A stretch of 64,000 nucleotides of DNA from a virus. The stretch is taken from positions 1 to 64,000 of the IMG/VR virus record IMGVR_UViG_3300027800_000004, one strand, 5' to 3'. The notes under the pieces are model-generated. The model worked only from the letters and a program-made list of their open reading frames with translations. It was not told where the DNA came from and did no database searches. Positions 33,973 through 64,000 of this stretch are shown piece after piece (position 1 is the first letter of the stretch; every line of letters begins with the position of its first letter). The position numbers were made by a program, and so were the translations under genes.

Positions 33973-33983
33973 ATTCTATTTGC

Positions 33984-39196: not shown

Positions 39197-39202
39197 GACC
39201 GG

Positions 39203-39529: not shown

Positions 39530-39635
39530 GGTAGTCTATTTTTTTGTTAAAGTTATAAAAAGCATCAAATATAAAGACAGCGGATGTGCTATTATCCGCT
39601 GCCAACAATTTCTATATGAAAGAACATGGTTGTAT

Positions 39636-48363: not shown

Positions 48364-49073
48364 CTTTTTCGGTAGTTATTCTCTGGATAAACGAGGTTAT
48401 AATGCCCTCTTCCGGATATCAACCTCTCTTTGCTGTTGTATCCGGAGTTGTGTATTTCAAAGGCTTTTGCCTCCTTGTTTGAGCCGATCCAGAACTCTCT
48501 TTTAAAACGCCAGGGATCATCGAGATAGGAATGGTCAAGTGTGTTGATATAATCTGTTCTTGCCCACCAAAAGTTTCCGGAGAAATGCGGCCAGTATCCC
48601 AGGGGAGTATCTTTATTCCACATCACTCCGCAGCAATCATATCCTTTCTCAAGAATCTTTATGCTGTCACACCATTTTTCTATGGCAAAATATTCCATAT
48701 ATCTTCTCCATGATTCTGTTGGTGCGGTGAGTTGAGTAATGCCTTTAGTGTGAAAATAGCAAACATAGTCTCCGGGGTTTTTTGCCGAATAGTCTCTTAT
48801 AAACTTTAAAGTATCGGACTCATCTTTGTTATCGTCATAGACCATGATGGTGATCTTAGAACTATCCATCGCGCTATCAATCTTTCCACAGAACCACCTT
48901 AACCACTCCAGATGCTTGGAAGACTTTTCTGTTTTCGGATTAATTACCCCAATATAAAATTTGTCACATGCTTCTAACAGGCCCGAATTGATTACGTTCT
49001 CCATCTGGTCGGTAATCATGTCAACACAATGATCTATCAGATACACATGATAGGCAGCAACGATCTTTTTCAT
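48360..49073 (-). CDS. Putative glycosyltransferase-like protein (YFHTKG / HFSGNFWW viral family)
   Basis: E..TL, VCYFHTKG, WRRYMEYF, YDCCGV, HFSGNFWWA..DYI, RF..EFWIG. Confidence 0.55.
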   Translation of the reverse strand: MKKIVAAYHVYLIDHCVDMITDQMENVINSGLLEACDKFYIGVINPKTEKSSKHLEWLRWFCGKIDSAMDSSKITIMVYDDNKDESDTLKFIRDYSAKNPGDYVCYFHTKGITQLTAPTESWRRYMEYFAIEKWCDSIKILEKGYDCCGVMWNKDTPLGYWPHFSGNFWWARTDYINTLDHSYLDDPWRFKREFWIGSNKEAKAFEIHNSGYNSKERLISGRGHYNLVYPENNYRKR

Positions 49074-50293
49074 AATATCTTGATATCGGGAAACATTACA
49101 ATGAATTTTCCATCATACTGACCTTTTAAAGACTCGATGATGTAATCACGAAAGTTATGAGCCAGGATAAGGATGTAGTCAATATGGTTGTCTTTTAAAA
49201 CATCCCGGCTGACTACCTCTATGCCGGTGCCTGGCACGAACTTATTTTGTTTGAAAGGGGTATCATCAATGATGAACTTCATAATGGAATAGTCAATTCC
49301 GCAAGTGTTTAGAAACACACAACCCTTTGCGGCCGCACCAAACCCTGCGATGACCTTTCCCTGAGAGATCAGGTCCGCAATGAACTTCTGAAACTCCTCA
49401 ATCTTCTGGTGTGTTCGTTTGCCCCATTTTATGCAATACTCTTCCGTAAGTGTCTTTTCAAGATTGAGAAAAGATGCTATGGTGGTATCCGGTGTTCGTG
49501 ATGATGTTTTCTTGGCACTCAAGACCCGGAGGGTGCCGGCGTGCATGTCGTGGTAAGAAACATTGATGACCTTTAACCCTTCCTGGTCAAGCAGATCTAT
49601 GATGTTTTGCAGACAGTAGTAGTACACATGTTCGTGATAGATCTGGTCGTAGTTGTCGTTGGCAAGGGTTGTGAGGATATATGGAAACTCCAAGCACCAT
49701 ATTCCATCGTTTGTGAGTGACTGCCGGATCCCGCGGACGAAAGACCTGATAGGTTCGGTATGCTGAAATACGTTTGTTGAGGTGATAAGTTTTGCCTTAT
49801 ATGGCAATCTGATCTTATCGTCAAAATACTCGCAGATATATTCGATGCTGATCTCCTTATTGATGTCAATGAAGCTGCGGCTGCAATCAATGTTGATGTA
49901 TGTTGGGGACCGGTTCTCTTTCTTAAACTCCAAAAGAAGGCTTCCATCATTGCCGCCAATATCCACAACAATATCATCCTTCTGCAATGTGATAAACCAC
50001 GACAGGTAATCATACATGTTGGCGCAATGGTCCAGGTATGGCTTGTTGACTCCGGAACGGTAAAGATAGTTCAGAAAGATGCCGTCCCGGTCAACACACT
50101 CGGTCAGGCTGGTCAACTTACTTTCCGGGAAGAATTGAATAGCCAGGGGAAATTTTTCGCAGTCAAGAGATTCTTGCATTGTCAGGCAAAGGTTATTTAC
50201 CAATGGCACTTTGCCCAGGTTAAGGTATTCTACGGACTCCTTACTTCCACTAATTGGACATTGGGTTATTTTCATGGTTTTGAGTATATCCAA
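49070..50293 (-). CDS. NDP-hexose C-methyltransferase (TylC3/EryBIII/NovU-like)
   Basis: LNLGKVPLVN, YLYRS, VDIGGNDG, TNVFQH, DQIYHEHVYY, GFGAAAKG, DDTPFKQ...PG, ILAHNF. Confidence 0.88.
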   Translation of the reverse strand: MDILKTMKITQCPISGSKESVEYLNLGKVPLVNNLCLTMQESLDCEKFPLAIQFFPESKLTSLTECVDRDGIFLNYLYRSGVNKPYLDHCANMYDYLSWFITLQKDDIVVDIGGNDGSLLLEFKKENRSPTYINIDCSRSFIDINKEISIEYICEYFDDKIRLPYKAKLITSTNVFQHTEPIRSFVRGIRQSLTNDGIWCLEFPYILTTLANDNYDQIYHEHVYYYCLQNIIDLLDQEGLKVINVSYHDMHAGTLRVLSAKKTSSRTPDTTIASFLNLEKTLTEEYCIKWGKRTHQKIEEFQKFIADLISQGKVIAGFGAAAKGCVFLNTCGIDYSIMKFIIDDTPFKQNKFVPGTGIEVVSRDVLKDNHIDYILILAHNFRDYIIESLKGQYDGKFIVMFPDIKIL

Positions 50294-50826
50294 TATTCTG
50301 CATTAAAGCGATCTGTCTGATCTATTTCGGAAAGTGGTTTTAGCCGTGATAATCTTTTACGATCAAACCAAAAGTAATTTCCGGAAAATCTTTTGGGTAT
50401 AGACAGGTAGTTTACCGAAGAGATATCATATCCTGTTTCAATAAGATCCTTATGATGCTGCCACTGACTGAGCATTATGAAATTAAGAAACATCCTCTCT
50501 TTCGTCTGCATGGTATCTTTTGGCCTGGTTACACCTTTGAGATGAAAATAGAAACCAACATAATTACTGGGGTCCTGCTCTATAAGTTTCAATGTGGCAA
50601 ACTCATATTCAAGAGGATTTGTTGTTTGATAGCATAATGCAAACTTCATTTTTGGATATAATAATTGCATTAATTTATCAATATCTTGTTGTGATCCAAT
50701 ACATCCCATCTTAATCTCGGCACAACTATCGTAGAGATGGGATGCAACCAATATATTCAACTGTTCATTTACGATAGCCTCCCAGTTGTTGATGAGGTAC
50801 AGATGCCAATAGCCTTTTATAATCAT
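50272..50826 (-). CDS. Paralog of the 237-aa glycosyltransferase-like protein
   Basis: EFATL, FYFHLKG, GYD, FSGNYFW, RFNAEYWI. Confidence 0.55.
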   Translation of the reverse strand: MIIKGYWHLYLINNWEAIVNEQLNILVASHLYDSCAEIKMGCIGSQQDIDKLMQLLYPKMKFALCYQTTNPLEYEFATLKLIEQDPSNYVGFYFHLKGVTRPKDTMQTKERMFLNFIMLSQWQHHKDLIETGYDISSVNYLSIPKRFSGNYFWFDRKRLSRLKPLSEIDQTDRFNAEYWIYSKP

Positions 50827-51461
50827 GTGTCCTTGATTGAGATTGGTGATTCTCCGTTCTGTGTTTTTTTCGCAATATCCTCCGGTCTTAACTGCAATCG
50901 CTCATCCTCCATGTAACGTAGGATCTCATCCTTGAGATATGGATTGTTATCCTGGTTGAGTATTTCCATAAGCGTATCTTCCAACTCCGTCTGAATATTT
51001 CGCGCGTCACCGATTTGCTTTGTAGATCCTCCCATGATATCCAGCATGATTGAGTAGTAGGATGTCTCGATGCTAACAAGGAAAGCATATTTAAAATTTC
51101 TGTGGAGTCTGACATATTCTACTATTTTTTGATTTACAATTCTGTTTCTTCCTTTCAGTAGATCTTCTATTGGTGGCGCAAAGATACCTCCTCCGGTGTC
51201 TTCAAATCCTACATCGTGGGCCACCTCAATCTTTCTCTTCAGGACATCGGAGTATTTCTTCCGGTAGGGGGAGTTCTTATCATACATGCAAAGGATATAT
51301 TTCAACAATAGATCGTTGTCGATGCCCTCTCCGGGATCCAGCCGGAACGCGCGGACCTTGGCCAACTCCTTGTAAAACTTCAGCACACCGGATCCCTCCG
51401 GTACCCTGGCCGGATTATACATCATCTGGGAAAACTCTCTCTCGTTGAACTGGCTCTTCAT
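50823..51461 (-). CDS. Conserved helical protein, candidate terminase small subunit
   Basis: 212 aa; KYILCMYDKNSPY motif; upstream of TerL once the glyco genes are removed. Confidence 0.4.
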   Translation of the reverse strand: MKSQFNEREFSQMMYNPARVPEGSGVLKFYKELAKVRAFRLDPGEGIDNDLLLKYILCMYDKNSPYRKKYSDVLKRKIEVAHDVGFEDTGGGIFAPPIEDLLKGRNRIVNQKIVEYVRLHRNFKYAFLVSIETSYYSIMLDIMGGSTKQIGDARNIQTELEDTLMEILNQDNNPYLKDEILRYMEDERLQLRPEDIAKKTQNGESPISIKDT

Positions 51462-52156
51462 AGTTTTGCAAAGATATATCTGCGCTGAACTCTCCAGTAT
51501 TTATTCCCTCCGTCAATGTTTGCATGAAGGTCATACTCCAATGGCAGATCAGTAATCTTCTTCATCACAACCATGTCTCCCGGATTGATAGATACCCCTT
51601 CATCCGTATGCCCGTCCACATAAGCCTCATTTGGCCGGCCTAGGTATTTTACTTTTCCGTAAACAACTCCGGTAAGCGATTTTTTATCAGAACGAAACAT
51701 GGTCAGGCCAACCTTCTCCATCCTCTTATCCTGGGCATTGATCTCCGGACTGTCACATGGCTCGATCAGACAGTAACCATTGATAGGAACTATTATCCCA
51801 TCTCTTACTGCGGCAAAGATATTCTGGTATTGTGTCCAGATGTATTTCTGGCCATCCTCTACAATGGCTCTCATTGTTTCCGGACGCAATGCGTTGACAA
51901 CGGCCAGGTAATAGATCACAACCCTGTCACCTAACCTGAGTTCAAGAGGTGTTTTCCAGGGCATCCCTATGTTTGGGATCCCAGTATAAGAAAGTCTTTT
52001 GGGAAGACCGTAGACAATACCTGTAACCGTTGCATGTTTCTCAACCTCGAAGGTGGTATCAATGTATAGTTCGGTTCCATTCTTAAGTTTAATCAGATCA
52101 TTGTCCTTGTCTAATCTTATCATTACGAAGTTGCCGAATGTTTGCTTGTGCTGCAT
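51458..52156 (-). CDS. Tandem GroES-like co-chaperonin
   Basis: Two GroES-like halves: (LKNGTELYID...GIVYGLP...LRLGDRV) and (PINGYCLIEP...GKVKYLG...INPGDMV...YIFAKL). Confidence 0.7.
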   Translation of the reverse strand: MQHKQTFGNFVMIRLDKDNDLIKLKNGTELYIDTTFEVEKHATVTGIVYGLPKRLSYTGIPNIGMPWKTPLELRLGDRVVIYYLAVVNALRPETMRAIVEDGQKYIWTQYQNIFAAVRDGIIVPINGYCLIEPCDSPEINAQDKRMEKVGLTMFRSDKKSLTGVVYGKVKYLGRPNEAYVDGHTDEGVSINPGDMVVMKKITDLPLEYDLHANIDGGNKYWRVQRRYIFAKL

Positions 52157-52445
52157 AATCCTTGTTCTTAATTGCTATTGTCTGTCCGTTAATTTCCTCA
52201 AACCTTATCTGTCCTTTCTTCTCAAGCGTTTTAAAACGGTTAGCCATCGCCCTTTTATTCTTGCGTGACATGTTTTTAAACATGAGCAGTTCTGTCTTTC
52301 TGAGATTAATGTTCTGGCCGTTGTATTTGATTACCACATAGTCGTTGATAACCTCTGTTGCCTTTGGCGGTTCCGGACGAGATACTGGTTTGGTCCACAA
52401 CCAGTATCTTATCCTTCTCCATAACTTTTTCAGAAAAGTTACCAT
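52098..52445 (-). CDS. Hypothetical basic protein
   Basis: 115-aa ORF in the operon. Confidence 0.45.
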   Translation of the reverse strand: MVTFLKKLWRRIRYWLWTKPVSRPEPPKATEVINDYVVIKYNGQNINLRKTELLMFKNMSRKNKRAMANRFKTLEKKGQIRFEEINGQTIAIKNKDYAAQANIRQLRNDKIRQGQ

Positions 52446-52789
52446 ACCGGAGGTTTTTGAGATTTAAACTTTACGTTCAGATCTGCAATTTCCTTCTCGC
52501 CTTCGGCAACCACCTTGGGATTATCGCTCTGCATCTTCGCGCGCGCAACAGCCATTGTGGTTTTGATGTCATCCATCGTAAGCCGTTTCTCCGGCTCTGG
52601 TGGTACAGGAATAAATTTTGGTTTTTCTTCCACTGCTGGAGCCGGCACCGATAATTCCTTTACGATGTCTTTCTTCACAACGGGTTTTTTTGCCACTGTC
52701 TTTTTCACTACCACCGGAGGCGGTGTTACTTTTTTCTGTGTCAGTTCTTTTTTCTTTGTCATAACTCTTGATTTTAATTGGTCAGTCAA
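52439..52789 (-). CDS. Lys/Pro/Val-rich hypothetical protein
   Basis: 116 aa, low complexity. Confidence 0.45.
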   Translation of the reverse strand: MTDQLKSRVMTKKKELTQKKVTPPPVVVKKTVAKKPVVKKDIVKELSVPAPAVEEKPKFIPVPPEPEKRLTMDDIKTTMAVARAKMQSDNPKVVAEGEKEIADLNVKFKSQKPPVW

Positions 52790-52796
52790 ATTTATG

Positions 52797-52878
52797 AAAA
52801 AACCCCCTCATTGGAAAAACGAGGGGGCCGTTCTTGCTATGAACAAGAAAGCAGAACATACAGTCGGCATCTGTATGG
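52797..52878 (-). ncRNA. Candidate small structured RNA or attenuator (three hairpins, U6 tail)
   Basis: TAACTTTG element at 52889-52882; stems CATACAG/CTGTATG, GTTCTTGCT/AGCAGAAC, CCCCCTC/GAGGGGG followed by T6 on the minus strand. Confidence 0.45.
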
Positions 52879-52934
52879 TGTCAAAGTTATATCTTTTTCC
52901 TTGTTCCATTAAATTTTCAGGTAAGTATGTTTTA

Positions 52935-53441
52935 CTATCGTTCACCGGTTAATAGATCTGCACGAAATTGTTCCAACTCTTTCTCCAATCTTTCATCCTC
53001 AATTTTTTTTCTTTTTTCAAAATCAGCAAAAGATTCTTCTTTCTTATCATTCTTAATCATTCTTGTTTGTTGTTGGTTGTTTGTTGATTGATTGTTAATT
53101 GGTGTGTTAGTTTGTTTGTTGGCATCGCTTTCCTCGATTTGATAAGCATCATAGTTGCAAATAGTTATAATACTATATTTGTTTGTTGATTTGATTGTTA
53201 TTTCGCCTGTTGATTTTAGACGGCCTAAACTCGTTCTAATTGACTGGTAACTGACACCAGTTGCGCGTTTGATGCTATTTAAACTGCTGATTGTTGATGC
53301 TTTGTTGACCATAATGCCTTTCCACTTCTTATCTTTATGATTCACAGTGAGTAATAGGTAGAGAAAAATTCGGAAAGTATTGTCGTCTTGAAACCACTCC
53401 CAATTCAGTATTTTTCTGTGTATTTTAATCCATCCTTCCAT
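52935..53441 (-). CDS. Phage replication-initiator-like wHTH protein with internal iteron-like repeats
   Basis: Likely start MEGWIKIHRKILNWEW; FLYLLL, IRTSLGRLKSTGEI...IITICNYDAYQ; TTGTTTGTTG-like repeats at ~53063-53202. Confidence 0.75.
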   Translation of the reverse strand: MEGWIKIHRKILNWEWFQDDNTFRIFLYLLLTVNHKDKKWKGIMVNKASTISSLNSIKRATGVSYQSIRTSLGRLKSTGEITIKSTNKYSIITICNYDAYQIEESDANKQTNTPINNQSTNNQQQTRMIKNDKKEESFADFEKRKKIEDERLEKELEQFRADLLTGER

Positions 53442-53545
53442 AGTCACACTTTTAAAGGAGAGGCGTTCCCCCCAGGGGTGTGACATCCGCGTTTGGCAAC
53501 AGCAGATCCCTGGGGAGTAGCCTCAGTATTTTATTGATAGTCACA

Positions 53546-54421
53546 CTATTTTTTATCCTGCAGAAGTCCATTCTTCTTGCAAAACCTTGTTACTCGTTTA
53601 TAAAGTTCCGGTTCCTCAAGCTGTAAGCGCATATTCACCCTGCGCATCATCGTGTAATCCCTCTTTGTGGTCCCCCATAGATGAGTATATTTTAACTTAT
53701 CAGGGATCACGGTGACATCTTCTGCAATAACCTTGACCTTCTTGCGGAGATTGTGCATCTTGATAAGGCTGGCAGCGAAATACTGCTCATGGAAGAGGTT
53801 CTGGTGGATCAGTACGCCCTTATGTTTTCGGAAAAAGATATCCTGGTTCTCTTCGGCAAAGATGTATTCCGCGGAACACTCAATCCACTCCTTAAAGAAC
53901 TCCAACTTATTACCCCCACAGATCCCGCAGTTGTAGGCAAAGTCCAAAACTTCGTTATCAACAATTTTCTGAGGCTTTACCGGAGCATCAGCGAAACATG
54001 GCCGCATCATGTCGTAATACTTATAGCCGTCCAATTCCATTGGCTCATGGCTCTGGAAGCAAAGATCAGCCTTGAGGATACGTTTGGGCAGAGGATCCCA
54101 GAGAAACACATCATTGTCAATATGCACGAAAGGTACTTCCTGTTCGTTATAAGCAAGGAGTTTGCCATACGCCCAGAAGAAGGCCGACACTCGGTTCATC
54201 TCCTTCAACTTGTCGTTATAATGGGTTACTGGTAGGCCGATCTGTTTAAACATCTCGATAGCCCAGGGAGTGCTGACCATGTGGACCTCTTTAAAATGTC
54301 TTGAGGCACACCATACAGCCAGTGCGGTAGTGTATAGGAAGTCCGAATACTTTACGAATCCGCACTTGTTTACAAAATCTTCATCAGAATTGAAATAGGA
54401 AAAAACCACTCTGTTTATCAT
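53546..54421 (-). CDS. DUF6734-like nucleotide-sugar transferase (GT-A fold, putative)
   Basis: WAYGKLLAY...PFVHIDNDVFLW (DxD), FQSHE, YNCGICGG, FHEQY, YTHLWG. Confidence 0.7.
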   Translation of the reverse strand: MINRVVFSYFNSDEDFVNKCGFVKYSDFLYTTALAVWCASRHFKEVHMVSTPWAIEMFKQIGLPVTHYNDKLKEMNRVSAFFWAYGKLLAYNEQEVPFVHIDNDVFLWDPLPKRILKADLCFQSHEPMELDGYKYYDMMRPCFADAPVKPQKIVDNEVLDFAYNCGICGGNKLEFFKEWIECSAEYIFAEENQDIFFRKHKGVLIHQNLFHEQYFAASLIKMHNLRKKVKVIAEDVTVIPDKLKYTHLWGTTKRDYTMMRRVNMRLQLEEPELYKRVTRFCKKNGLLQDKK

Positions 54422-54440
54422 AATTGCCGATATTAGGATA

Positions 54441-54482
54441 AAAAAAGGGGGAGGGTTAGAAAGTCAGGTCAGACCCTCCCCG
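54441..54482 (-). terminator. Intrinsic terminator after the tandem small-protein genes
   Basis: GGGGAGGGT...ACCCTCCCC stem with a T-run on the minus strand. Confidence 0.65.
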
Positions 54483-54500
54483 GAAACATGGAAAAAAGTA

Positions 54501-54746
54501 TTAAACAAAAAGACCGCCAATGGCGTCACCCAGGTAATAACCCGTAGTGTTAGCATATCCACCGCAAAGGATGTCAACTGCCGTATCGAAACGCCACCGC
54601 AGTTCATTCTTATCAATGACTTGGGTTACGCATTTGTGGATGTGGTGATACTGATCACCGTCCTTGTATCCCTCCGGCTGGTAGTCCAGCTTCTCGGTTG
54701 CGAGAATTTTGAGGTCTATTTTTCCCTGAACATAATTTATTGCCAT
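54501..54746 (-). CDS. Small protein, paralog A
   Basis: 81 aa; C-terminal 24 aa identical to 54777..55037. Confidence 0.75.
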   Translation of the reverse strand: MAINYVQGKIDLKILATEKLDYQPEGYKDGDQYHHIHKCVTQVIDKNELRWRFDTAVDILCGGYANTTGYYLGDAIGGLFV

Positions 54747-54776
54747 TTCTTTATTTTTTTAAAGAGTTAAACATCA

Positions 54777-55037
54777 TTAAACAAACAAGCCACCGATTGC
54801 ATCTCCAAGATAGTAGCCAGTGGTATTGGCATAACCGCCACAGAGTATATCAATGGCTGTTGCCCACCTCCATCTCCAGTCATTGTAGTCCATGTTGATT
54901 GGACGGCATTTATGATCCTGGTTCCATTGCTGTTCGTGGTGTTCAACACCTTGTCTCGTCTGAGGATTAGACTTGTCCACCTCCAGGCACACCTTGGCAT
55001 GAAGGTCTATATATGATCTCACATAAGTAGTTGCCAT
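54777..55037 (-). CDS. Small protein, paralog B
   Basis: 86 aa; ends DILCGGYANTTGYYLGDAIGGLFV. Confidence 0.75.
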   Translation of the reverse strand: MATTYVRSYIDLHAKVCLEVDKSNPQTRQGVEHHEQQWNQDHKCRPINMDYNDWRWRWATAIDILCGGYANTTGYYLGDAIGGLFV

Positions 55038-55055
55038 TTTCTTAAGTATTAGTTA

Positions 55056-55634
55056 TTAAATTAGTGGAATTTCGATGTGTTTGATGATGCCATAGGCAAT
55101 CTTGTTGCCGTCATTGCCAAAAGGAACAACATACAGATCAAGTCCACCTAACAGGGCCACATCCATATTGGCCGTGATCTTTTCAGTTGTCGTACTGGTA
55201 ACAGGCGTTTCTGCTGCTGCAACAGTTAGTGCAGAGGAGAAGGACGGATCTGTATCTACAAGAAAACCACAGGTAGTTGCAACATTATTGCTCTCTACTT
55301 TTGCGGAAAAATACAGCGTCATTGTATCTGTATCAAGGATGAGATCTCCCATCCATACTTCTACCGGTGGCAACGTAGCCAGTTCCCATCCTCTCGTCAA
55401 AACAAGGTAAGCATCAGCATATCTTCCCTGATACTCATTCAAAAGAAGTTCCATCATCGGAAGATCCTTTACAAACTTCTCCTGTTGACGCTCACGGCCG
55501 GGACGTTTCTGTATTGCCCCCTTGTTTGTGTCCCAGGTGATTCTCTCTTCCAGAAAACTAAACCGGGTCTTTATCCTCACATTTCTCAGATGTGAGGCGG
55601 TACCCTGTCTGGATCCAATCGTAATTCTTGCCAT
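55056..55634 (-). CDS. Distant paralog of A/B with C-terminal Ig/FN3-like domain
   Basis: NEYQGRYADAYLVLTRGW aligns with NDWRWRWATAIDILCGGY; C-terminal beta-sandwich pattern (CGFLVDTDPSF...LYVVPFG...AYG). Confidence 0.5.
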   Translation of the reverse strand: MARITIGSRQGTASHLRNVRIKTRFSFLEERITWDTNKGAIQKRPGRERQQEKFVKDLPMMELLLNEYQGRYADAYLVLTRGWELATLPPVEVWMGDLILDTDTMTLYFSAKVESNNVATTCGFLVDTDPSFSSALTVAAAETPVTSTTTEKITANMDVALLGGLDLYVVPFGNDGNKIAYGIIKHIEIPLI

Positions 55635-55681
55635 TTTTCACTTGGTTTTAAATGGTTACACTCAAAATTATCGTTATAAAG

Positions 55682-56083
55682 TTAAGTCTTTTTCCGTAGT
55701 AGGGCGTAGATGTTCTTATTTTCTTCATCATCTACCGATCTCTCACAGATAATGAATGTGAATCTATCAGGACAGGTTGCCCCTGCCGGTCGTGATGTAA
55801 CAGTCCAGGTCTTATCCATCACCAACGAAGCCAGATCTACCGAATTAAACACCGCGCCACCTCTTCCATTCTTTCTTAATCGGTAGGTACTGCCTACTGA
55901 AATAAAAAACTCACTGGGGACATCTCCCTGAAAGACATCCACCAGTGAGCCGTGACGAACATTTAATCTGACTAACGCCACATTTGACAGTATGACCACC
56001 CCACGCCTGGTAAATGATATCGTGGCTAACTTATTATGGCTCTTGTTGGCCAATCCCTCCCTGGTCAACCGAACAAATTTCAT
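55682..56083 (-). CDS. Hypothetical protein
   Basis: 133-aa ORF with ATGA overlap to the upstream gene. Confidence 0.5.
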   Translation of the reverse strand: MKFVRLTREGLANKSHNKLATISFTRRGVVILSNVALVRLNVRHGSLVDVFQGDVPSEFFISVGSTYRLRKNGRGGAVFNSVDLASLVMDKTWTVTSRPAGATCPDRFTFIICERSVDDEENKNIYALLRKKT

Positions 56084-56289
56084 CTCCCATCAAATATCTT
56101 ACCCCAGATATTCTCGTTGTAGTGCCTCTTTGGATTAAATTGGTTCTTTTTGTGCAGCTTTGGGTAATCTGCCCTCTCTTTGGCAGCCTTTGTGTCATTG
56201 TACGCAGCACACTTGCTCGTAGCAGTACGGTAACTTGAACACGACATCAGTAACAATGTCATCACAATTAATAACGCGATCTTTTTCAT
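56080..56289 (-). CDS. Small lipoprotein
   Basis: MKKIALLIVMTLLLMS|C lipobox. Confidence 0.65.
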   Translation of the reverse strand: MKKIALLIVMTLLLMSCSSYRTATSKCAAYNDTKAAKERADYPKLHKKNQFNPKRHYNENIWGKIFDGR

Positions 56290-56301
56290 AGCAATATGGT
56301 T

Positions 56302-56628
56302 TTAGGTGTTATCTTCATTCTTTACAACAGGTGGCATAACCTTAATCTCCGGTCCCTTCTGTTCGGTCTTATCCACCTGCCCGGATACTAATCGTAGCAA
56401 CTGATCAACCTCCACCCCTTCCCTGGCTACTATCACCAGGTACCAGTACAAGACATTACTCATGCTGATGATCTTGCTCATCCTCTCATACTCCCCTCCA
56501 AACTTATTCCGGGGATCCAGACTTAAATTCATCAGTAACATGGCATCATGCAGCTTGTTTAGGACATCCTTGCCATCTTCTGCCTTTAACTCCTTCATCT
56601 GTGCAACCAACTCTTCTACTGTTCTCAT
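56302..56628 (-). CDS. Hypothetical protein
   Basis: 108-aa ORF. Confidence 0.45.
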   Translation of the reverse strand: MRTVEELVAQMKELKAEDGKDVLNKLHDAMLLMNLSLDPRNKFGGEYERMSKIISMSNVLYWYLVIVAREGVEVDQLLRLVSGQVDKTEQKGPEIKVMPPVVKNEDNT

Positions 56629-56640
56629 ATCTCTTAGTTT

Positions 56641-56922
56641 TTAGTTCCTGTTATATCCACTCATCCTTTCCCTTCCATTTACCCTCTGCTTTCCCTTATA
56701 CAGCGTAAAACTACGAAAGATCATATAATCCCCCTCTACTAATACATCCCTCTTCTTCCTGCTGAATATGTACGTTAACCGGTCCCTCTTTATTCCCGTC
56801 ATCCCTTCCAGTGTTACCAGGTTCGTGCAATTACTCACCATACAGTCTGTCAAATCATCCGTTATCGCCTTTCCCCCCAGGCAAACTACTGTGTAAATCC
56901 TCTGTATCCTCTTCCGGTTCAT
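56641..56922 (-). CDS. Hypothetical protein
   Basis: 93-aa ORF; TAGCTTTG (-7 like) element at 56975-56968 upstream. Confidence 0.45.
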   Translation of the reverse strand: MNRKRIQRIYTVVCLGGKAITDDLTDCMVSNCTNLVTLEGMTGIKRDRLTYIFSRKKRDVLVEGDYMIFRSFTLYKGKQRVNGRERMSGYNRN

Positions 56923-57483
56923 AATCGTGTAAAATCAGCCATTACAACTTAGCGGCCCGTACACTTGCAAAGCTAATTTAATTTACGACATAGGACTACG
57001 CAAAATGGTAAAAAGTTATTAACAAGTAATTAATTTTATACCAAAGTGAGCGTCTGCCTGCGGTCTATGTATATATTTCAGGCTCGGTCGCGCGAACCCA
57101 AATCGGATTTGCGTACCCGCCCCCCCTGCCTGGGCCTCTCCAGGCGTTTTGTGTCCGTGCCTTTAAAGTGGTTCTGCCCTGTCCAACAACAAAATAAAGC
57201 GTTCTGACCTGTTGTTGATAGGGTAGGGGAGAGGATCTATAAACACAATGCCTTCATGTTCTATTTAACATAATGATAATTATGGGCAATGTAGTCAGCC
57301 ATCATGTCATGCCTGTCTGAGTGTGTCATCCCTGCATCCTGTGAGCCTGTAAATGTGGCCTCTTTTGTGCTTGATACAATTCAATGAACGTACATAATGA
57401 ATGGTGTGGATGATGCGTTAAATGGGTTGAAATGCTTAAATTTGCGTGTTAAATGGGTTGTTAACCTCTTGAGAGTTGCATAA

Positions 57484-58035
57484 ATGAATGAGAACCTGTC
57501 CCCTGCGCCATCCTTGCCTCCTTCTCTGGCTTATCTGTATTCAAACCTATCAATGGAAGAACAAAGGGTCTTTCATAAGGTGTTCAATAGTATGTGGGGT
57601 GTTGTTGCTCCCTTGAAGCGGTTCGTTCATCATGGTGGTGTCATGTATGCCTATTGGGTTGCTGATAAACTGCGTGAAGAACATAACCTCACCAATGTGG
57701 AGTTATCCCTGCTCATGTATTTGTATCATGTGTCTGGTGGTGGCAGACAGGTCATTGATGGTGTAGATCTCCTCGCTGCTCCCTCCTTCCCCTGCTCGTA
57801 TAACTATTGGATGGTGTTGTCCGGTCAGTTTAAACAACGTGGTTATATCGTGCGTTCTGTTCGTAACCCTGCTAAACCATATACATCTGGGTATCGTGCA
57901 AAGGGAATGAGATACATAAGACTAACCGACAAAGCAATTAACTTGATACATGATATGGATAGAGAGTTGTACAGGCGGTTGCGGTCTTGTACGTTCAACG
58001 ATGTGGTGTGTGGATATGGAAAAGGGCAGATATAA
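57484..58035 (+). CDS. MarR-like winged-helix protein
   Basis: LTNVELSLLMYLY...FKQRGYIVR...YIRLTDKAINLI. Confidence 0.55.
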   Translation: MNENLSPAPSLPPSLAYLYSNLSMEEQRVFHKVFNSMWGVVAPLKRFVHHGGVMYAYWVADKLREEHNLTNVELSLLMYLYHVSGGGRQVIDGVDLLAAPSFPCSYNYWMVLSGQFKQRGYIVRSVRNPAKPYTSGYRAKGMRYIRLTDKAINLIHDMDRELYRRLRSCTFNDVVCGYGKGQI

Positions 58036-58068
58036 CTCTGCCCTCTGTCCTGTGGTCTTATTTGAGGT

Positions 58069-58434
58069 TTAAATAACTCCCATTGCAATCCCCTGTTTCA
58101 GCATGTACTCTGAACTGCACCAATGTATTTGATTAATGATAACATTGATGTTCGTCTTGTGGTCTGCTTCATTGCCTTCATCATCCATGCCAATAATCAT
58201 TGACTTGCCAAGAATAGCATATACAAAGCCATTGAACATCCATCCGGCCTGTGGTGCATCCTCATTGAACTCAATCCATGCCTCTTCGTTGCAGTATAGC
58301 ACATCTCTGTTAGGATAAGTGATAGGTGCTTCAATCATGTGGCAGTCTAAGAGCCTGTAAATGTCCTTGAGGCTTCCGGTTGTTTCAACCTGTGTTACTT
58401 CCTTTGTGTCTGGGTTAATTAAAATTGCTTTCAT
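58069..58434 (-). CDS. DUF3846-like protein
   Basis: MKAILINP...LKDIYRLLDCHMIE...VLYCNEE...ILGKSMIIGMDDEG. Confidence 0.6.
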   Translation of the reverse strand: MKAILINPDTKEVTQVETTGSLKDIYRLLDCHMIEAPITYPNRDVLYCNEEAWIEFNEDAPQAGWMFNGFVYAILGKSMIIGMDDEGNEADHKTNINVIINQIHWCSSEYMLKQGIAMGVI

Positions 58435-58446
58435 TGTCGTGTGTGT

Positions 58447-58722
58447 TTATAGGTTATTAATCAGTTGCATTAATTCATCCGGTTTGCGGTCATCCTTGAC
58501 GTTGTTACAGGCAAGTGCATAGAATATTGAACTCCCCATAACAAGATTGTCATAGGGGTCAATAATAGGGTCAATGGTCTTAATCTCATTGACATTTAAC
58601 CATGTTGATTTTGGTTCGGTTGTCTTGAAATAGCGTTCTTCTTTTGAGTGCCATATCCATGACCATGTACATTTAAGAATGTGTGTTCTCATCTCCTTAT
58701 TTATTAGTGTGTTTGACTTCAA
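58447..58722 (-). CDS. Hypothetical protein (true start may be ATG 58692)
   Basis: ORF track; AAACACAC motif and AAGGAG precede MRTHILK. Confidence 0.45.
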   Translation of the reverse strand: MKSNTLINKEMRTHILKCTWSWIWHSKEERYFKTTEPKSTWLNVNEIKTIDPIIDPYDNLVMGSSIFYALACNNVKDDRKPDELMQLINNL

Positions 58723-58942
58723 TTATAGCCTTCCAACATGAGTCGCAAACATAGTCAGAAGGGTATGGGTCTATGCAGTTCTGAAATGCCACCCATTGTT
58801 CGGGCGTGTACTCTGGGATTGCCTCCTGTTCTCTCCGGTAGTCACCTACAAATGACATGATTAACAGGGTAATGAATAAGGCCAACGTAACAACGATTAG
58901 GCCGATGTTCATCTGTTCTTCTACGTTCTTGGTTTTCATCAT
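58697..58942 (-). CDS. Small membrane protein with C-terminal CxxC
   Basis: One TM helix; CDSC. Confidence 0.5.
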   Translation of the reverse strand: MMKTKNVEEQMNIGLIVVTLALFITLLIMSFVGDYRREQEAIPEYTPEQWVAFQNCIDPYPSDYVCDSCWKAIIEVKHTNK

Positions 58943-58982
58943 CTTGCGTGTTTTAGTGTGTGTTCTGCGTTGTTTGATACTG

Positions 58983-59083
58983 CAATATTATACTATATAA
59001 TAACACGAACAAATTTATTTTGACGAATAGTTCGTTTTTTTTGACGAACGGATTTGTTGGTTTAATATATTAGTGTATCTTCA
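58983..59083. promoter_or_regulatory. Divergent Bacteroidota-type promoter pair with central operator-like repeats
   Basis: Leftward TTTG(59013-59010)-N19-TAATATTG(58990-58983); rightward TTTG(59053-59056)-N19-TATCTTCA(59076-59083); TTTTGACGAA at 59018 and 59039. Confidence 0.6.
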
Positions 59084-59113
59084 CATCGTATTAATAACAT
59101 AATAACACACACA

Positions 59114-59773
59114 ATGAACACACGACAATTAGAATTGCAAGAACCAGATGCTAAACTGCTCTACATGGGTAAGTCAGCATTGTCAGACAGGGACATTATG
59201 TCTTTAATTCTGGCAGGGAGTGACAACAAGAACAAGGCTGACAAGGTATTGAAAGCCTCAGATTTCAATTTTGATAGTATGTCAAAGTATTGTTACACCG
59301 ATTTGAAAGCGTTCGGATTATCCCATTTACAGGCCGTTCGCTGCATTGCAGTTATTGAGTTCGCCAAGCGGTTGAATATACACAGGGTTGACGAACAGAC
59401 ACAAATTAGGTCAAGTTCAGACATCTTTGCTTACATGTCCCCCATCCTCTCAGACCTTGACCATGAGGAATTTTGGGCAATCCTGTTGAACAGGGCAAAC
59501 CGCATCATTAAGCGTGTCAAAATCTCACAGGGTGGCATAGCGGGAACGGTCACCGACATCCGCATATTGTTCAAACATGCCATTAATGACCTTGCCTGTG
59601 GCCTTGTGGTATGCCATAACCATCCCTCTGGCAATACCTCTCCCTCTGATAGTGACATCCGCATAACTCAGAAGATTAAGGAGACAGGGAACATTATGGA
59701 CATACAGGTATTAGACCATGTAATTATCGCCAAGAGTGAACACTATTCCTTTGCAGATAACGGAACGCTATAA
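59114..59773 (+). CDS. radC: RadC family JAB-domain protein
   Basis: EEFWAILLNRAN, ISQGGIAGTVTD, HNHPSGNTSPSDSD, VLDHVII, YSFADNG. Confidence 0.93.
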   Translation: MNTRQLELQEPDAKLLYMGKSALSDRDIMSLILAGSDNKNKADKVLKASDFNFDSMSKYCYTDLKAFGLSHLQAVRCIAVIEFAKRLNIHRVDEQTQIRSSSDIFAYMSPILSDLDHEEFWAILLNRANRIIKRVKISQGGIAGTVTDIRILFKHAINDLACGLVVCHNHPSGNTSPSDSDIRITQKIKETGNIMDIQVLDHVIIAKSEHYSFADNGTL

Positions 59774-59795
59774 CACTAACTAACACACAAATAAC

Positions 59796-60119
59796 ATGGA
59801 AACAATTTACATTTTCAACTACTCACCGAAGGCCATTGTTGTCGTGGGTGACACCAAGCCAATTCACGGACTACTCAAGAACGCAGGGGGCAAATGGAAC
59901 GCCCGATTAACCGATTTAAGGACAGGGAACAAGTTTGGAGGTTGGGTATATCATCATACTCGTTTGGCTTCCATACAGGCCACATTAACGGCCAATGCAA
60001 TCAAGTTCGCAATGGAGAGGCCGTCAAGCCTCTCCTCCCTCTCATCCACAGGTCGGGATTATATCCAAGACCCTGCTGAAATAGATGCTGACAACTTTTG
60101 CCAACGTAACAATATCTGA
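59796..60119 (+). CDS. Small conserved mobile-element domain protein
   Basis: YSPKAIVVVGDTKP...LKNAGGKWN...GWVY pattern, recalled from polyvalent/leading-region proteins. Confidence 0.5.
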   Translation: METIYIFNYSPKAIVVVGDTKPIHGLLKNAGGKWNARLTDLRTGNKFGGWVYHHTRLASIQATLTANAIKFAMERPSSLSSLSSTGRDYIQDPAEIDADNFCQRNNI

Positions 60120-60121
60120 AC

Positions 60122-60505
60122 ATGGCACAGACAGGACTATTCACAGGCGAAGAGATGCGTGGTACAGGTCAGATGAACATGCTGAACTCCATAGACCACC
60201 AAGAGGACAGGATTAAAAGCCTCCGCAAACAGGTACACCATTACCATTATGATGCAGGGCATGGATGGTTAGAGGTGGAACTTGCTGACCTTTCAAAATT
60301 AGGCATAAGCCATGCTATCTCCGGTTTCTCATTCAGACATGGTGACAAAGCATATTTGGAAGAAGATAGCGATGCGGTTCTCTATATTAACACACTCTTC
60401 CCGAACCGACATGTTGACCCCGAATATCCGATATTTCAAGACCACATGAGGGGTATAAATGATGGTGACAACTCACACATCAGAAGATACGCACACTACA
60501 AATAA
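60122..60505 (+). CDS. Conserved phage early protein (DxGHGWL family)
   Basis: DAGHGWLEV...ISGFSF...AYLEEDSDA. Confidence 0.55.
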   Translation: MAQTGLFTGEEMRGTGQMNMLNSIDHQEDRIKSLRKQVHHYHYDAGHGWLEVELADLSKLGISHAISGFSFRHGDKAYLEEDSDAVLYINTLFPNRHVDPEYPIFQDHMRGINDGDNSHIRRYAHYK

Positions 60506-60515
60506 CATGAACAAC

Positions 60516-60539
60516 GCCTCCCTGCTACGGCAGGGGGGC
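60516..60539 (+). other. GC-rich intergenic hairpin
   Basis: GCCTCCCTGC-TACG-GCAGGGGGGC; no U-tract on the + strand. Confidence 0.45.
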
Positions 60540-60555
60540 ATAAAAACAAAAGACA

Positions 60556-60753
60556 ATGGCAATACTTATTAGAATTGGAGACAGAGTACAACGCAATCAA
60601 GTCGGTGACTATACTCATGGCCGTAGAGGAGATGTTGTTGATATTAATGGTGAAAGACTGAGGGTAAAATGGGATATGTTCCCAAGTGGTGTAATGATGA
60701 AAACCCCTGTTCGTACATGGGTGAATGTAAAGAGACTTGTTAAAATAGGATAA
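60556..60753 (+). CDS. Small SH3/KOW-like protein
   Basis: IRIGDRV...RGDVVDI...LRVKWD. Confidence 0.5.
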   Translation: MAILIRIGDRVQRNQVGDYTHGRRGDVVDINGERLRVKWDMFPSGVMMKTPVRTWVNVKRLVKIG

Positions 60754-60762
60754 CACACAAAC

Positions 60763-61005
60763 ATGAAAAAAACATATCATATATCAACCTACAAAGAGGT
60801 TTTTATTGAAGCAACCACCAAAAAAGAATGTATTGCTATAATGAAGCAATATGAGCAAAAGGGGTGGAAAGCTGATAAGCCTATTAGAAAAGGAGATTGG
60901 GATAGTTCTGGTTTAATTTACTATGTATTTATGAGTAAAGAAACAGGCGGATATATCAATGCTCCTCCTACCGACATAACTGCGAACCCTCATACATTTA
61001 ATTAA
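60763..61005 (+). CDS. Hypothetical protein
   Basis: 80 aa; preceded by TAACACACA. Confidence 0.5.
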   Translation: MKKTYHISTYKEVFIEATTKKECIAIMKQYEQKGWKADKPIRKGDWDSSGLIYYVFMSKETGGYINAPPTDITANPHTFN

Positions 61006-61028
61006 TAAATCTTTAAACACACAAAACA

Positions 61029-62303
61029 ATGACAACTACACAGATTAGTACCAAAGACAACCGCACACCTATCTATTACATAGGTCTTGTGCGTGAAGGC
61101 CGTAAACTCATCATACAGGCCAAAGAAAGCGTTGATGAGTTATCATGTGAGATAACTGACTACTTAGGGCCAAGACAGGTAAGCAAGGCCACGATTGAGG
61201 CAAATAAGACCATCCTTCTGGAAGGCTTTAAGGCCGACCCGAAATACCGCAACTGCGACATGGTTGAGGTACAAGAGCCGGAAGAGGTTTACACAAGGCC
61301 GGAGGTCACAAAGTTCAAACAGATAGCATACCTTGAGCAGATGCAAAAGAAAATGATGGACTTAAACCAAAGTATGCACGACTTAAACATGCTTTGGCAG
61401 AAGGATATGCAGTTTGACTTGGATATGAACGATTATCTTGCCAACCAATACCCTTTTAACTTCTCTTTTGATGACCTTGTTATAGAGGCTGATGTTTGGT
61501 ATCAGAAAGGTTGGGTTGCTTTAAATCAAAAGATAAAGGTATTGCAGGGGTATCCGGCTGATAAGGTGTACGGCACACAGAATAACGAGCAGAAGGTTGA
61601 AGAGCCTTCTGCTCCCTACTACACTCCCGAAGAGGCACAGGGCAAATGGATATGCGCCTACGATACAATGTGCGGTGGATGGGATTGTGTCCGCTATTCC
61701 GGTGGTGACAAAGATGGCTATCCTGTCCTGTATGGCAGTAAGAGAGAGGTTGAGGCTGATGATTTCTTTGATGGTGAGGATGACTTTGCAATATTGGCTA
61801 CTGAGTTCATTGAAGGCCGCAAGGCTTTCTTTGGTGCTAATGGCCTACACATTGAAGGCATACCCATAGTTAAAGGCTACCGGATTAAGGGCAACAAGAC
61901 AACCATGAGGGCAGAAGAACCGGAGGCAAAGTATGAGATTAAGGTTGCAAAGGCATGGCAGAGTTCGGAGTTCTTCCCAAATGGCCTTGACATCATTGCT
62001 CTGGAGTTAGATTACAGGGACAGAATAAAATTACTTGGTGCAATAGAAAAGTGCAAATTGTATGGCTATGACCATATAGCCGTTCATGCAGGGAGAGGAG
62101 CAGAATATCTCACAAATGAGGGAGATGAGGTTGAGTTTTACACCGATGTTGAGTATTTTAAAGTATTCAATGATTGTGTATATTTCTATGCACAGAGCAA
62201 GTATGATAGCGGTTGCCAAGTTGAAAGCGAACGCATTGTAATTACAAACAACTTGGCTATTGAGTTACCCGACCATGTTGAATACGAAGTTGAACAACAA
62301 TAA
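61029..62303 (+). CDS. Multidomain early protein with repeated EPxxxY linkers
   Basis: 424 aa; VQEPEEVY, VEEPSAPY and AEEPEAKY separate four ~80-130-aa blocks. Confidence 0.55.
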   Translation: MTTTQISTKDNRTPIYYIGLVREGRKLIIQAKESVDELSCEITDYLGPRQVSKATIEANKTILLEGFKADPKYRNCDMVEVQEPEEVYTRPEVTKFKQIAYLEQMQKKMMDLNQSMHDLNMLWQKDMQFDLDMNDYLANQYPFNFSFDDLVIEADVWYQKGWVALNQKIKVLQGYPADKVYGTQNNEQKVEEPSAPYYTPEEAQGKWICAYDTMCGGWDCVRYSGGDKDGYPVLYGSKREVEADDFFDGEDDFAILATEFIEGRKAFFGANGLHIEGIPIVKGYRIKGNKTTMRAEEPEAKYEIKVAKAWQSSEFFPNGLDIIALELDYRDRIKLLGAIEKCKLYGYDHIAVHAGRGAEYLTNEGDEVEFYTDVEYFKVFNDCVYFYAQSKYDSGCQVESERIVITNNLAIELPDHVEYEVEQQ

Positions 62304-62314
62304 TAACACACACC

Positions 62315-62788
62315 ATGAAAGCAACAGAGACATTTAAAGGCGTTATCAAGGCTTATTGCGATGAGAGGGCGTTATCAGATTTCCCCTTCTCTGAGGCATT
62401 AAAGAAGGCCGATAGGAACATTGAGGATTGTGTTACATACATTCTCAATGAGGTCAAGAAAAGCGGATGCGAAGGCTTTGCTGACCAAGAGATATTCAAC
62501 ATGGCAGTACACTACTATGAGGCCGAAAAGGTTGAGATAGGGGATAAGTCTATTAGTGCCAACGTGGTGGTGAACCATCATATTGACAAGCCAAAGCCAA
62601 CTGCCATTGCCAAGTCAGACAAGAAGGCTTCCGCACCCAAGACAGAGAAGAAGGCAGATACCAAGCCAACCATTGCTCCGATGAGTGTCATCAAGAATAT
62701 TACAGATAAGTATTTTGATGCCAAGAAGGAGGAAGAACCAAAGAAGGATGGGGATAAGCCTCAGTTCATTCAAACCTCATTATTCTGA
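62315..62788 (+). CDS. PcfK-like protein
   Basis: FKGVIKAYCDERA..D..F...IEDCVTYILNEVKKSGCEGFADQEIFNMAVHYY; ends Q.SLF. Confidence 0.85.
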   Translation: MKATETFKGVIKAYCDERALSDFPFSEALKKADRNIEDCVTYILNEVKKSGCEGFADQEIFNMAVHYYEAEKVEIGDKSISANVVVNHHIDKPKPTAIAKSDKKASAPKTEKKADTKPTIAPMSVIKNITDKYFDAKKEEEPKKDGDKPQFIQTSLF

Positions 62789-62792
62789 TACC

Positions 62793-64000
62793 ATGAGGCC
62801 AAAGACAGAGATACAGAAGGAAGTTGACAGATATAGTCACCACCTTCACAAATTCACGGCAGAACAGAAGAGGTATGCCTACGACAATGTGTTTACTGCC
62901 CATGTCTATAAGACAAAGGACAAGGCCACCTGTCTGACATGCGGTCATACATGGGAGGATGCTACCGATAAGGCAAGTCTTCTCCATTCTATTGGCGGTT
63001 ATACCTGTCCCAAGTGTGCCAGGCACTTGACCGCCCTCCCCACCATGCAACGTACCCTGCATGACAAGGGGTACATTCATCAGTTCATCACATTCAAGAA
63101 CTACCAAGTGGTTCGGACATGCTTTATAAAGCGTTCGTGCAAGGCAGGGCAGAAGGTAGAGTACAATTTCAATGAGATCATTCAGCATTGGATAAGAGAG
63201 GATGGTAAGCACGTTGTCCGTTCTGTCCTGTATCAAGCAATGGGATATAACGCAGACGCATGGTGTCTGGGTACAGACATAGATATAAGAGGTGATGCAG
63301 ATAAGTATTATCAACATGCCAAGAACGTATTCCCCAACAAGAGCATATTGAAGGTCATCCGCAGAAATGGCTACAAAGGTGGTTTCCATGACCTCCACCC
63401 TGCTTATTTCTTCCATGTGATACTGACCTACCCGATGGCTGAAACACTCTTAAAAGCCAAGCAATACACCTTATTGAGTTATTGGAGTGTCAATCGCATT
63501 AAGGAACTTGAGAAGTATTGGCCTCAGATTAAGATTTGCATCCGCAATAACTACATCATTAAGGATGTTGGAACATGGTTTGACCAACTTGAACTGCTTG
63601 AATACTTTGGCAAGGACATCTTCTCCCCTGCGTTTATCTGCTCCCCCACCCTCAAGAACGACCATCAGAGGCTCATTGACAAGAAAGAGAAGATCATGGA
63701 GGGCAAGAGGATTGCCGAACTCAAGGGCATGATAGCGAAGGCCAATATACACTACCGCAAGAGCAAGGAGAAGTATTTCAATCTCCGGTTCTCCAATGGC
63801 AACGTGGATGTTGTTGTTCTCAACAATGTGATGGAGTTCTATTTGGAGGGCAAGGCACACCATCATTGTGTGTTCACCAATGAGTATTACAAGAACGAGG
63901 ATAGCCTTATCCTGTCAGCACAGAGACAGGGCGAGAGGCTTGAGACTATTGAACTCTCCCTGCGTGAGATGAGAATACTCCAAGCAAGAGGTCTTCAGAA
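62793..64000 (+). CDS. PcfJ-like protein, partial (runs off the window edge)
   Basis: Hand-translated MRPKTEIQKEV...CLTCGHTW...CPKC...ETLLKA...EGKAHHHCVFTNEYY...SLILSA...RLETIELSL; follows PcfK. Confidence 0.85.
   Translation, partial: MRPKTEIQKEVDRYSHHLHKFTAEQKRYAYDNVFTAHVYKTKDKATCLTCGHTWEDATDKASLLHSIGGYTCPKCARHLTALPTMQRTLHDKGYIHQFITFKNYQVVRTCFIKRSCKAGQKVEYNFNEIIQHWIREDGKHVVRSVLYQAMGYNADAWCLGTDIDIRGDADKYYQHAKNVFPNKSILKVIRRNGYKGGFHDLHPAYFFHVILTYPMAETLLKAKQYTLLSYWSVNRIKELEKYWPQIKICIRNNYIIKDVGTWFDQLELLEYFGKDIFSPAFICSPTLKNDHQRLIDKKEKIMEGKRIAELKGMIAKANIHYRKSKEKYFNLRFSNGNVDVVVLNNVMEFYLEGKAHHHCVFTNEYYKNEDSLILSAQRQGERLETIELSLREMRILQARGLQ

Follow-up and report, generated by a model that had tools for sequence, protein, structure and literature searches.

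Introduction

In phages T5 and BF23 (Tequintavirus), restriction takes place only if sites lie inside the first-step-transfer DNA, according to the passage of PMC10644984 that cites Davison and Brunel (1979), and in the T7-like Murciavirus (Autographiviridae) it is the early injected region that decides how sensitive the phage is to restriction-modification (R-M) systems of Type I (PMC12455610). The leading regions of conjugative plasmids, which are the first to enter, are enriched in anti-defence genes (Samuel et al. 2024, PMC11541004) and, in some plasmid groups, depleted of short palindromes (Shaw et al., bioRxiv 10.1101/2025.04.03.647016). Here we analyse bases 1–64000 (‘the window’, 64,000 nucleotides) of the 76,344-bp contig of a tailed phage, IMG/VR record IMGVR_UViG_3300027800_000004 (genome G000), in which an island carrying RadC-, PcfK- and PcfJ-like genes has been purged of many Type II restriction words. 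Phage P1, through its Dar system, has a further means of protection: the DarB methyltransferase-helicase is carried in the virion and protects against Type I systems, and this needs no site-free region.

Results

The GATC gap persists under every null tried

GATC occurs at positions 57766 and 63176 of the window and nowhere between them, a gap of 5,410 bp that a preliminary description of this DNA had already reported and that is 5.4 times longer than the runner-up (995 bp). The word is otherwise frequent, with 333 sites in the window, 392 in the full genome and a mean spacing of 195 bp. Base composition predicts 20.0 sites between 57770 and 63175, in agreement with the figure of about 20 given in that description, a first-order Markov model predicts 19.3, and a maximal-order Markov model trained on the region itself predicts 13.8. 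In 1000 synonymous-codon shuffles of the island genes, a procedure that keeps every protein sequence and codon usage, the expectation was 15.6–18.1 sites and the minimum 6–8, with no shuffle at 0. Overall, none was observed against 13.8–29.8 expected across Markov, density and synonymous-codon-shuffle nulls; the depletion thus survives the codon and Markov nulls that had been proposed as a check on it.

This GATC-free core contains no TCGA, CGCG, CTAG or GGWCC either, and a single CCWGG. TCGA is missing all the way from 55072 to 65641, and within 57140–65972 CCWGG is represented by a lone site at 63019, against a genome total of 182. The preliminary description was therefore right that the stretch lacks TCGA and that CCWGG, common elsewhere, appears in it once, but wrong in taking TCGA to be frequent elsewhere: there are 59 sites in the whole 76 kb, and outside the island the word reaches 0.29 of its codon-null expectation.

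A wider island is poor in many words

Depletion extends well beyond GATC. From ~57.2 to 65.9 kb the DNA is poor in GATC, CCWGG, GGWCC, ACNGT, GANTC, TCGA, AGCT, CGCG, GCGC, CTAG and 6-bp palindromes; counted over the island genes, the depleted words lie 4- to 20-fold below the codon null or are absent (Table 1). Other short words are spared, CCGG, GGCC, CATG, TGCA, GTAC and TTAA being equal to or above codon-null expectation in the island. GGWCC is missing from 56781 to 68029. The ratio of observed to expected 4-, 5- and 6-bp palindromes reaches its genome minimum over the island windows (for 6-mers 0.29–0.37, median 0.64), and a set of 12 words has 12 sites in 57501–65000 where 129 would be expected (genome mean 17.2 per kb). 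A low-GC or compositional cause was rejected, GC content being 0.426 in the island and 0.422 in the remainder.

For the same 12-word set the left border is sharp and falls in non-coding DNA at ~57.24 kb, whereas the right border is graded, from 63 to ~67 kb. The depletion peaks over a divergent regulatory region and over the 4 kb of the rightward operon nearest the promoter, and weakens distally. Of the span first proposed, 57770–63175, what stands is the GATC-free core; the depletion as a whole is wider, from ~57.24 to ~65.5–67 kb, and runs past the end of the window. Two exact 13-nt repeats, GTTAAATGGGTTG, are found in the left border region, at 57417 and 57448.

The gene map (simple ORF calls) bears out the earlier remark that the desert matches a strand switch and the RadC/PcfK genes. 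Some 88% of the genome is a single long minus-strand array, in which 59114–65660 is the sole opposite-strand block; before it lie a short leftward unit (58069–58942) and a conserved rightward gene (57484–58035).

Table 1. Positions of island features, of depleted words and of other genes named in the text (word counts against the codon-aware null)
Feature	Position	Strand	Details
Left border region	56923-57483		mostly non-coding, GC-rich stretch; last cluster of CCWGG, CGCG and GATC; doubtful 53-aa ORF
Gene of unknown function, 183 aa	57484-58035	+	at left edge of island; conserved in most relatives
DUF3846 protein	58069-58434	-	acidic, pI 4.5; PF12957, E = 7e-10, 39.4 bits
Two small genes of leftward divergent unit	58447-58722, 58697-58942	-	second has L182 orthologue
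Divergent regulatory region	58943-59113		sigma-70-like site and two TTTTGACGAA repeats
RadC-like JAB-domain protein	59114-59773	+	opens rightward operon; PF04002, E = 6e-41, 139.6 bits
Three small genes of unknown function	59796-60119, 60122-60505, 60763-61005	+	most with leader AACACACA
Acidic orphan, 424 aa	61029-62303	+	pI 4.6, net charge -28
PcfK-like protein	62315-62788	+	PF14058, E = 9e-32, 110.4 bits
PcfJ-like protein	62793-64000, to genome 64088	+	PF14284, 97.5 bits
GATC	57484-65660		observed 6, expected 24-26
TCGA	57484-65660		observed 1, expected 20-23
AGCT	57484-65660		observed 1, expected 22-25
GANTC	57484-65660		observed 2, expected 18
ACNGT	57484-65660		observed 2, expected 14-17
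CCNGG	57484-65660		observed 2, expected 13
GGNCC	57484-65660		observed 1, expected 11
CGCG	57484-65660		observed 0, expected 7
CTAG	57484-65660		observed 0, expected 7-8
GCGC	57484-65660		observed 2, expected 8-9
Giant methyltransferase-helicase protein	7331-16090 and 1581-7310	-	N6-methyltransferase domain, Strawberry-notch-type helicase, LPD38 domain; downstream of tail genes
Family-2 glycosyltransferase	47770-48363	-	
Sugar C-methyltransferase	49070-50293	-	
DUF6734	53546-54421	-	

Selection acts on the DNA word itself

Codon choice in the island depends on the neighbouring codon. In the island genes that overlap the desert, Asp before a codon starting with C, where GAT would create GATC, is written GAT once and GAC 22 times (4% GAT); when the next codon starts otherwise, GAT makes up 60%. 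Elsewhere in the genome the corresponding figures are 65% and 68%. Ile behaves likewise, being written ATC after 9% of G-ending codons in the island versus 29% after others (rest of the genome 33% versus 29%). Because the choice of Asp and Ile codons is context-dependent, neither base composition nor amino-acid content nor plain codon bias can account for it. Purifying selection on the word itself therefore purges Type II restriction words from the island, by way of context-dependent synonymous codons.

The depletion is kept in a sister lineage, with a different set of words

Terminase searches gave 78 related loci, and eight complete or near-complete genomes (G001, G002, G003, G004, G005, G007, G008 and G009) were compared. 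All eight carry a hypervariable, mostly opposite-strand island at the same place, between homologues of 56641–58035 and 66815–67336. Palindrome poverty was seen in G000, in the sister lineage L182 and, partly, in G003, the three that have a RadC-PcfK-PcfJ-type island.

L182 (the same contig as L101 and L043) has a large terminase subunit (TerL) 90% identical to that of G000 and an island collinear with it, the proteins being 46–71% and the DNA ~72% identical. Measured against the codon null, the L182 island is poor in CCWGG, ACNGT, GANTC, GGNCC, CCNGG, GCNGC, TCGA, AGCT, CGCG and CTAG, its flanks much less so, and the sharp left and graded right border recur. GATC, in contrast, is at a normal level (26 sites versus 30 expected): the homologous 5.1 kb holds three GATC sites in G000 and 17 in L182, compared with 18 and 21 in the left flank. 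Which words are removed has therefore changed between lineages. Since multi-word depletion is shared in spite of saturated synonymous divergence, it must have been maintained, and since the L182 island is orthologous and normal in GATC, the GATC purge arose at this locus in the G000 line.

These comparisons bear on the possibility that the island, or its 57.8–63.2 kb core, is a mosaic legacy, recently swapped in from a word-avoiding mobile element such as a conjugative leading region or another phage. The locus is indeed hypervariable among relatives, and the RadC, PcfK, PcfJ and DUF3846 families are shared with conjugative elements, to judge from Pfam names that refer to genes of pCF10. Several unrelated PcfJ loci have 4–6 kb deserts across PcfJ (depleted tests at P < 1e-3 near PcfJ: 11/572 for palindromes, 35/4890 for non-palindromes), and the other deserts of the relatives fall in an exchanged tail-fibre region. 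Against such a swap, the L182 island is orthologous and has kept its depletion over the divergence just described, GC content is equal inside and outside (0.426 versus 0.422), and around the terminase GATC falls no lower than 1.6 per kb in any of 65 relatives, none of which avoids it there. Of the PcfJ homologues, the two nearest (94% and 84% identical) are both on short contigs; after L182 identity is at most 54%, and no close homologue was found in a long non-phage contig. An acquisition of this kind is thus improbable, and recent import from a GATC-avoiding donor, which the preliminary description had held in reserve, is unlikely given the orthology with L182 and its normal GATC content.

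Nor is the PcfK-PcfJ pair confined to conjugative elements, since in L219 (7059–12203) it lies upstream of a terminase, with an integrase and a DNA polymerase III beta-clamp on one side and a DnaD-like gene on the other, in an ordinary prophage-like element represented by a cluster of 20 near-identical loci. To judge from that neighbourhood, the pair may serve replication or establishment, and not conjugation as such. The proposition that all PcfJ neighbourhoods are deserts was set aside as weakly supported: the test counts above give it little weight, and the closest PcfJ phage loci outside the clade, L102 and L104, show no local depletion. A metagenome scan returned nothing nearer than L182 (67%), and viral-contig scans with the 424-aa orphan and with PcfJ, singly, returned no close relatives.

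Single-word deserts were seen in the non-homologous tail-fibre/variable region of two relatives: GATC in G001 (35348–39544), and CCWGG and GGWCC in G003 (50429–56744). The matching variable region of G000 (window ~30000–39500) is low in GC, at 0.32–0.39. Unlike the island, these deserts look like effects of composition or mosaicism.

Two tiers of avoided words

The rest of the genome has a word profile of its own. Below the codon null are TCGA (0.29), AGCT (0.30), GANTC (0.46), ACGT (0.49), CTAG (0.49) and CGCG (0.58); above it are CCGG (1.75, z = 14), CCWGG (1.51), GGWCC (1.24) and GATC (1.18). Two tiers can be distinguished: TCGA, AGCT, GANTC, ACGT, CTAG and CGCG are avoided genome-wide, and more deeply in the island, whereas GATC, CCWGG, GGWCC and ACNGT are avoided in the island only. 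Outside the island CCGG, CCWGG and GATC are enriched, beyond mere tolerance, and the same is true of G003 and of the L182 flanks; a bias resembling that of very-short-patch repair is one idea for this enrichment.

The tiers could be a readout of the specificity of a trans-acting anti-restriction activity, an interpretation that may call only for an intact first-expressed unit, with no need for staged injection; we think it rather unlikely. If it were true, the source of the activity would be the island (RadC, the acidic 424-aa orphan, PcfK or PcfJ) or the giant virion protein, the island-only words (GATC, CCWGG, GGWCC and ACNGT) would name the host systems neutralised, and the words avoided genome-wide (TCGA, AGCT, GANTC, CTAG and CGCG) those not neutralised; and if an intact first-expressed unit suffices, the effect would be general among phages.

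Enrichment outside the island also invites a cause other than host restriction, in which the words might be avoided because methyltransferases or nucleases of the phage itself act on them, or because they serve methylation-sensitive control of early promoters, and the rest of the genome would tolerate or favour what the island avoids. The excess of CCGG (1.75-fold), CCWGG (1.51-fold) and GATC (1.18-fold) over the codon null speaks for such a cause, and the phage does encode an N6-adenine methyltransferase domain, in the giant protein, as well as sugar-modifying enzymes. However, more than ten unrelated palindromes, and 6-bp palindromes generally, are depleted, which points to many restriction specificities and not to one modification system; no stand-alone Dam- or Dcm-type methyltransferase was present among the genes scanned, and the word set differs between sister lineages. 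We consider such a cause very improbable.

Genes and regulation of the island

The Pfam matches to RadC, PcfK, PcfJ and DUF3846 all exceed the curated cut-offs, while about ten small ORFs of the island had no match in Pfam, PHROGs or NCBIfam scans. The 424-aa orphan has 10 homologues only, among 5.8 billion proteins, and no usable Atlas match. The predicted structure of PcfJ is confident (pLDDT 91), with a four-Cys zinc ribbon at the N-terminus, a C-terminal domain and, besides these, a beta-sheet domain and a long helix. A Foldseek search of the model against the PDB gave no match; for the C-terminal domain (residues 327–428 of the AlphaFold model) VIA-align found only GNAT-fold neighbours, weakly (Z 5.5–7.8), and a GNAT identity was rejected as falling short of convincing at these scores.

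In the divergent region, ahead of the rightward operon, stands the highest-ranking sigma-70-like site (TTGATA-16-TATAAT, 58974–59001, + strand) of the 11 kb scanned. There, two TTTTGACGAA repeats surround an inverted repeat, and the region as a whole is ~85–90% identical to that of L182, where adjoining proteins are only 51–64% identical; it probably serves as a hub of operators and promoters. A CA-rich leader, AACACACA[A/C], directly precedes the ATG of seven island genes (58434-, 58942-, 59114+, 59796+, 60763+, 61029+ and 62315+) and is nearly absent from the other 68 kb. L182 and five of the eight relatives (G001, G002, G004, G005 and G009) also have it mainly in their syntenic islands, and it is rare or absent in G003, G007 and G008. 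We read the leader, where present, as the marker of a common expression class, and it may act as a translation signal. Downstream, a bidirectional terminator is predicted at 65667–65694. With these features the island forms a separately regulated divergent block, similar in appearance to an early region. An Rfam search of 54–64 kb gave no match.

The phage and its genome ends

The contig ends overlap by 99 bp, giving a circular assembly of 76,245 bp. Among the genes of a tailed phage are the terminase large subunit (45527–47767, minus strand), the portal (43192–45498) and virion proteins, and a replication/recombination module (DnaB-like helicase, YqaJ exonuclease, RusA and RecT) lies past the end of the window. 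Source DNA was detected in 14 runs from freshwater metagenomes. The nearest cultured phages are podophages of Cellulophaga, Flavobacterium and Maribacter, at a TerL identity of only ~27%; we describe the host as a freshwater one of Bacteroidota type and the virion module as that of a Bacteroidota podophage.

In G000 the giant methyltransferase-helicase polyvalent protein is read as two adjoining ORFs (2919 and 1909 aa, 20-bp gap), both matched by a single ~4430-aa ORF in G003, which may reflect a genuine split, a frameshift or read-through. Sugar-modifying genes adjoin the terminase (47770–54421, minus strand), with paralogous ORFs at 48360–49073 and 50272–50826 flanking the sugar C-methyltransferase; their products might act on DNA or on the virion.

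Two routes to the physical ends were tried and rejected: the end type could not be borrowed from Maribacter phage Panino or from the Cellulophaga and Flavobacterium podophages, which are too remote at ~27% TerL identity, and the contig ends of the linear G002 and G003 both fall in hypervariable regions. Contig depth in run X3 was equal inside (10.1 and 9.7) and outside (9.1 and 9.3) the island; depth per contig being a weak measure, this is weak evidence, and as such does not indicate a collapsed long terminal repeat.

Discussion

Restriction sites have been removed from one defined island of this phage by selection on the words themselves. On balance we think it probable that host restriction drove this avoidance in DNA exposed early, with staged entry as the most likely cause. 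The GATC-free stretch would then be the core of an early accessory island of ~57.2–65.9 kb, in which a divergent promoter hub is accompanied by a short unit running leftward and an operon of 6.5 kb running rightward (RadC, orphans, PcfK, PcfJ and small genes), and the island DNA would have to stay uncut and be expressed while host restriction enzymes are active; the remaining genome would be protected later, by island products or by the giant methyltransferase-helicase protein, a putative component of the virion. Early exposure would follow from slow polar entry of the kind known from T7, N4 and T5, starting near 57.3 kb and proceeding along the rightward operon. Entry of this kind would explain why the left border is sharp and the right border graded, and with these borders it is plausible that the island enters ahead of all other DNA.

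A model that does without staged entry is compatible with this border gradient as well: the genome would enter whole and selection would keep its first-expressed units site-free, such that an uncut fragment could yield anti-defence or repair proteins and rescue the same, co-infecting or later genomes (cooperative immunosuppression). In its favour, depletion is strongest at the promoter hub and over the proximal 4 kb of the operon, fading distally, and among G000, L182 and G003 it tracks RadC-PcfK-PcfJ island content and not syntenic position as such. Yet any cut in the other 68 kb, with its 391 GATC sites, would still kill that genome, so that the benefit needs co-infection or expression that is very fast relative to cutting. 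Moreover, an anti-restriction or repair role of the island proteins is putative, and a sharp left border in non-coding DNA is not predicted by the model alone. We hold it to be rather unlikely.

Several observations weigh against restriction avoidance coupled to staged entry. The circular assembly, with its 99-bp overlap, fixes neither physical ends nor entry order, and transcription of everything beyond the island runs counter to the entry direction proposed. In six of the eight relatives the syntenic island is not palindrome-poor, and in three it is richer in palindromes than the rest of the genome. The effect thus does not follow from position alone, and its limitation to some island types favours causes tied to island function, not to location only. 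In G003 the contrast stems largely from the fact that CCWGG, CCGG and GATC are enriched elsewhere in the genome; the island itself is clearly depleted only for TCGA, AGCT and 6-bp palindromes. Finally, Pfam, PHROGs and NCBIfam scans revealed no known anti-restriction family among the island proteins, and no Ocr-like protein was detected; two acidic proteins (the DUF3846 protein, pI 4.5, and the 424-aa orphan, pI 4.6) are no more than a hint in that direction. We infer an anti-restriction role for the island from its DNA signature and not from homology.

If restriction-driven avoidance in early-exposed DNA is the right explanation, the avoidance of restriction sites in part of a genome marks, by sequence alone, the DNA that is exposed before phage defences rise, and thereby indicates where to look for early counter-defence genes. 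The genes flagged here are an uncharacterised set (RadC, PcfK, PcfJ, DUF3846 and the acidic orphan) in a group of uncultured Bacteroidota phages. The lineage-specific purge of GATC suggests that the phage has recently adapted to a host that has a system cutting GATC, and the division between island-only and genome-wide avoided words yields testable predictions as to which restriction systems the phage neutralises. The principle is already established for T5, T7-like phages and plasmids, to which this phage island would add a further example.

Like the first-step-transfer DNA of T5, the island is a block of ~8–10 kb that carries small genes, early in T5 and probably so here, and lacks sites frequent elsewhere in its genome. 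T5 is restricted only through sites in the first-step block, the rest being protected once early genes have been expressed, and we propose the same here. The T5 block, however, lies in a terminal direct repeat of ~10 kb and its two-step entry has been demonstrated, whereas the island is known from a circular assembly only; its gene content (RadC, PcfK, PcfJ, DUF3846 and orphans) is unrelated to that of T5, and its phage has the virion module of a Bacteroidota podophage.

In Murciavirus restriction depends only on motifs inside the early region that enters first. That region, like the island, is hypervariable and transcribed along the direction of entry (proposed in the present case), and it carries anti-defence genes; it differs in that the motif is of Type I and the polarity of injection has been demonstrated. 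T7-like genomes are, in addition, wholly co-directional, while 88% of the present genome runs opposite to the island operon.

Plasmid leading regions are adapted for fast translation, with which the CA-rich leaders of the island are comparable, and RadC, PcfK and PcfJ are named from, or common in, conjugative elements, although RadC and PcfK do not appear in the main text of Samuel et al. (PMC11541004). The differences are that the island has no oriT or single-stranded entry, that relaxase and transfer genes were absent from the genes scanned, and that it belongs to a tailed phage with terminase, portal and capsid genes. As with DarB of P1, the giant methyltransferase-helicase protein is encoded after tail genes and, by analogy, could protect the incoming genome in cis. 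Without claiming membership in any of these groups, we regard the behaviour of the island as the same in kind as that of the leading DNA of T5, T7-like phages and plasmids.

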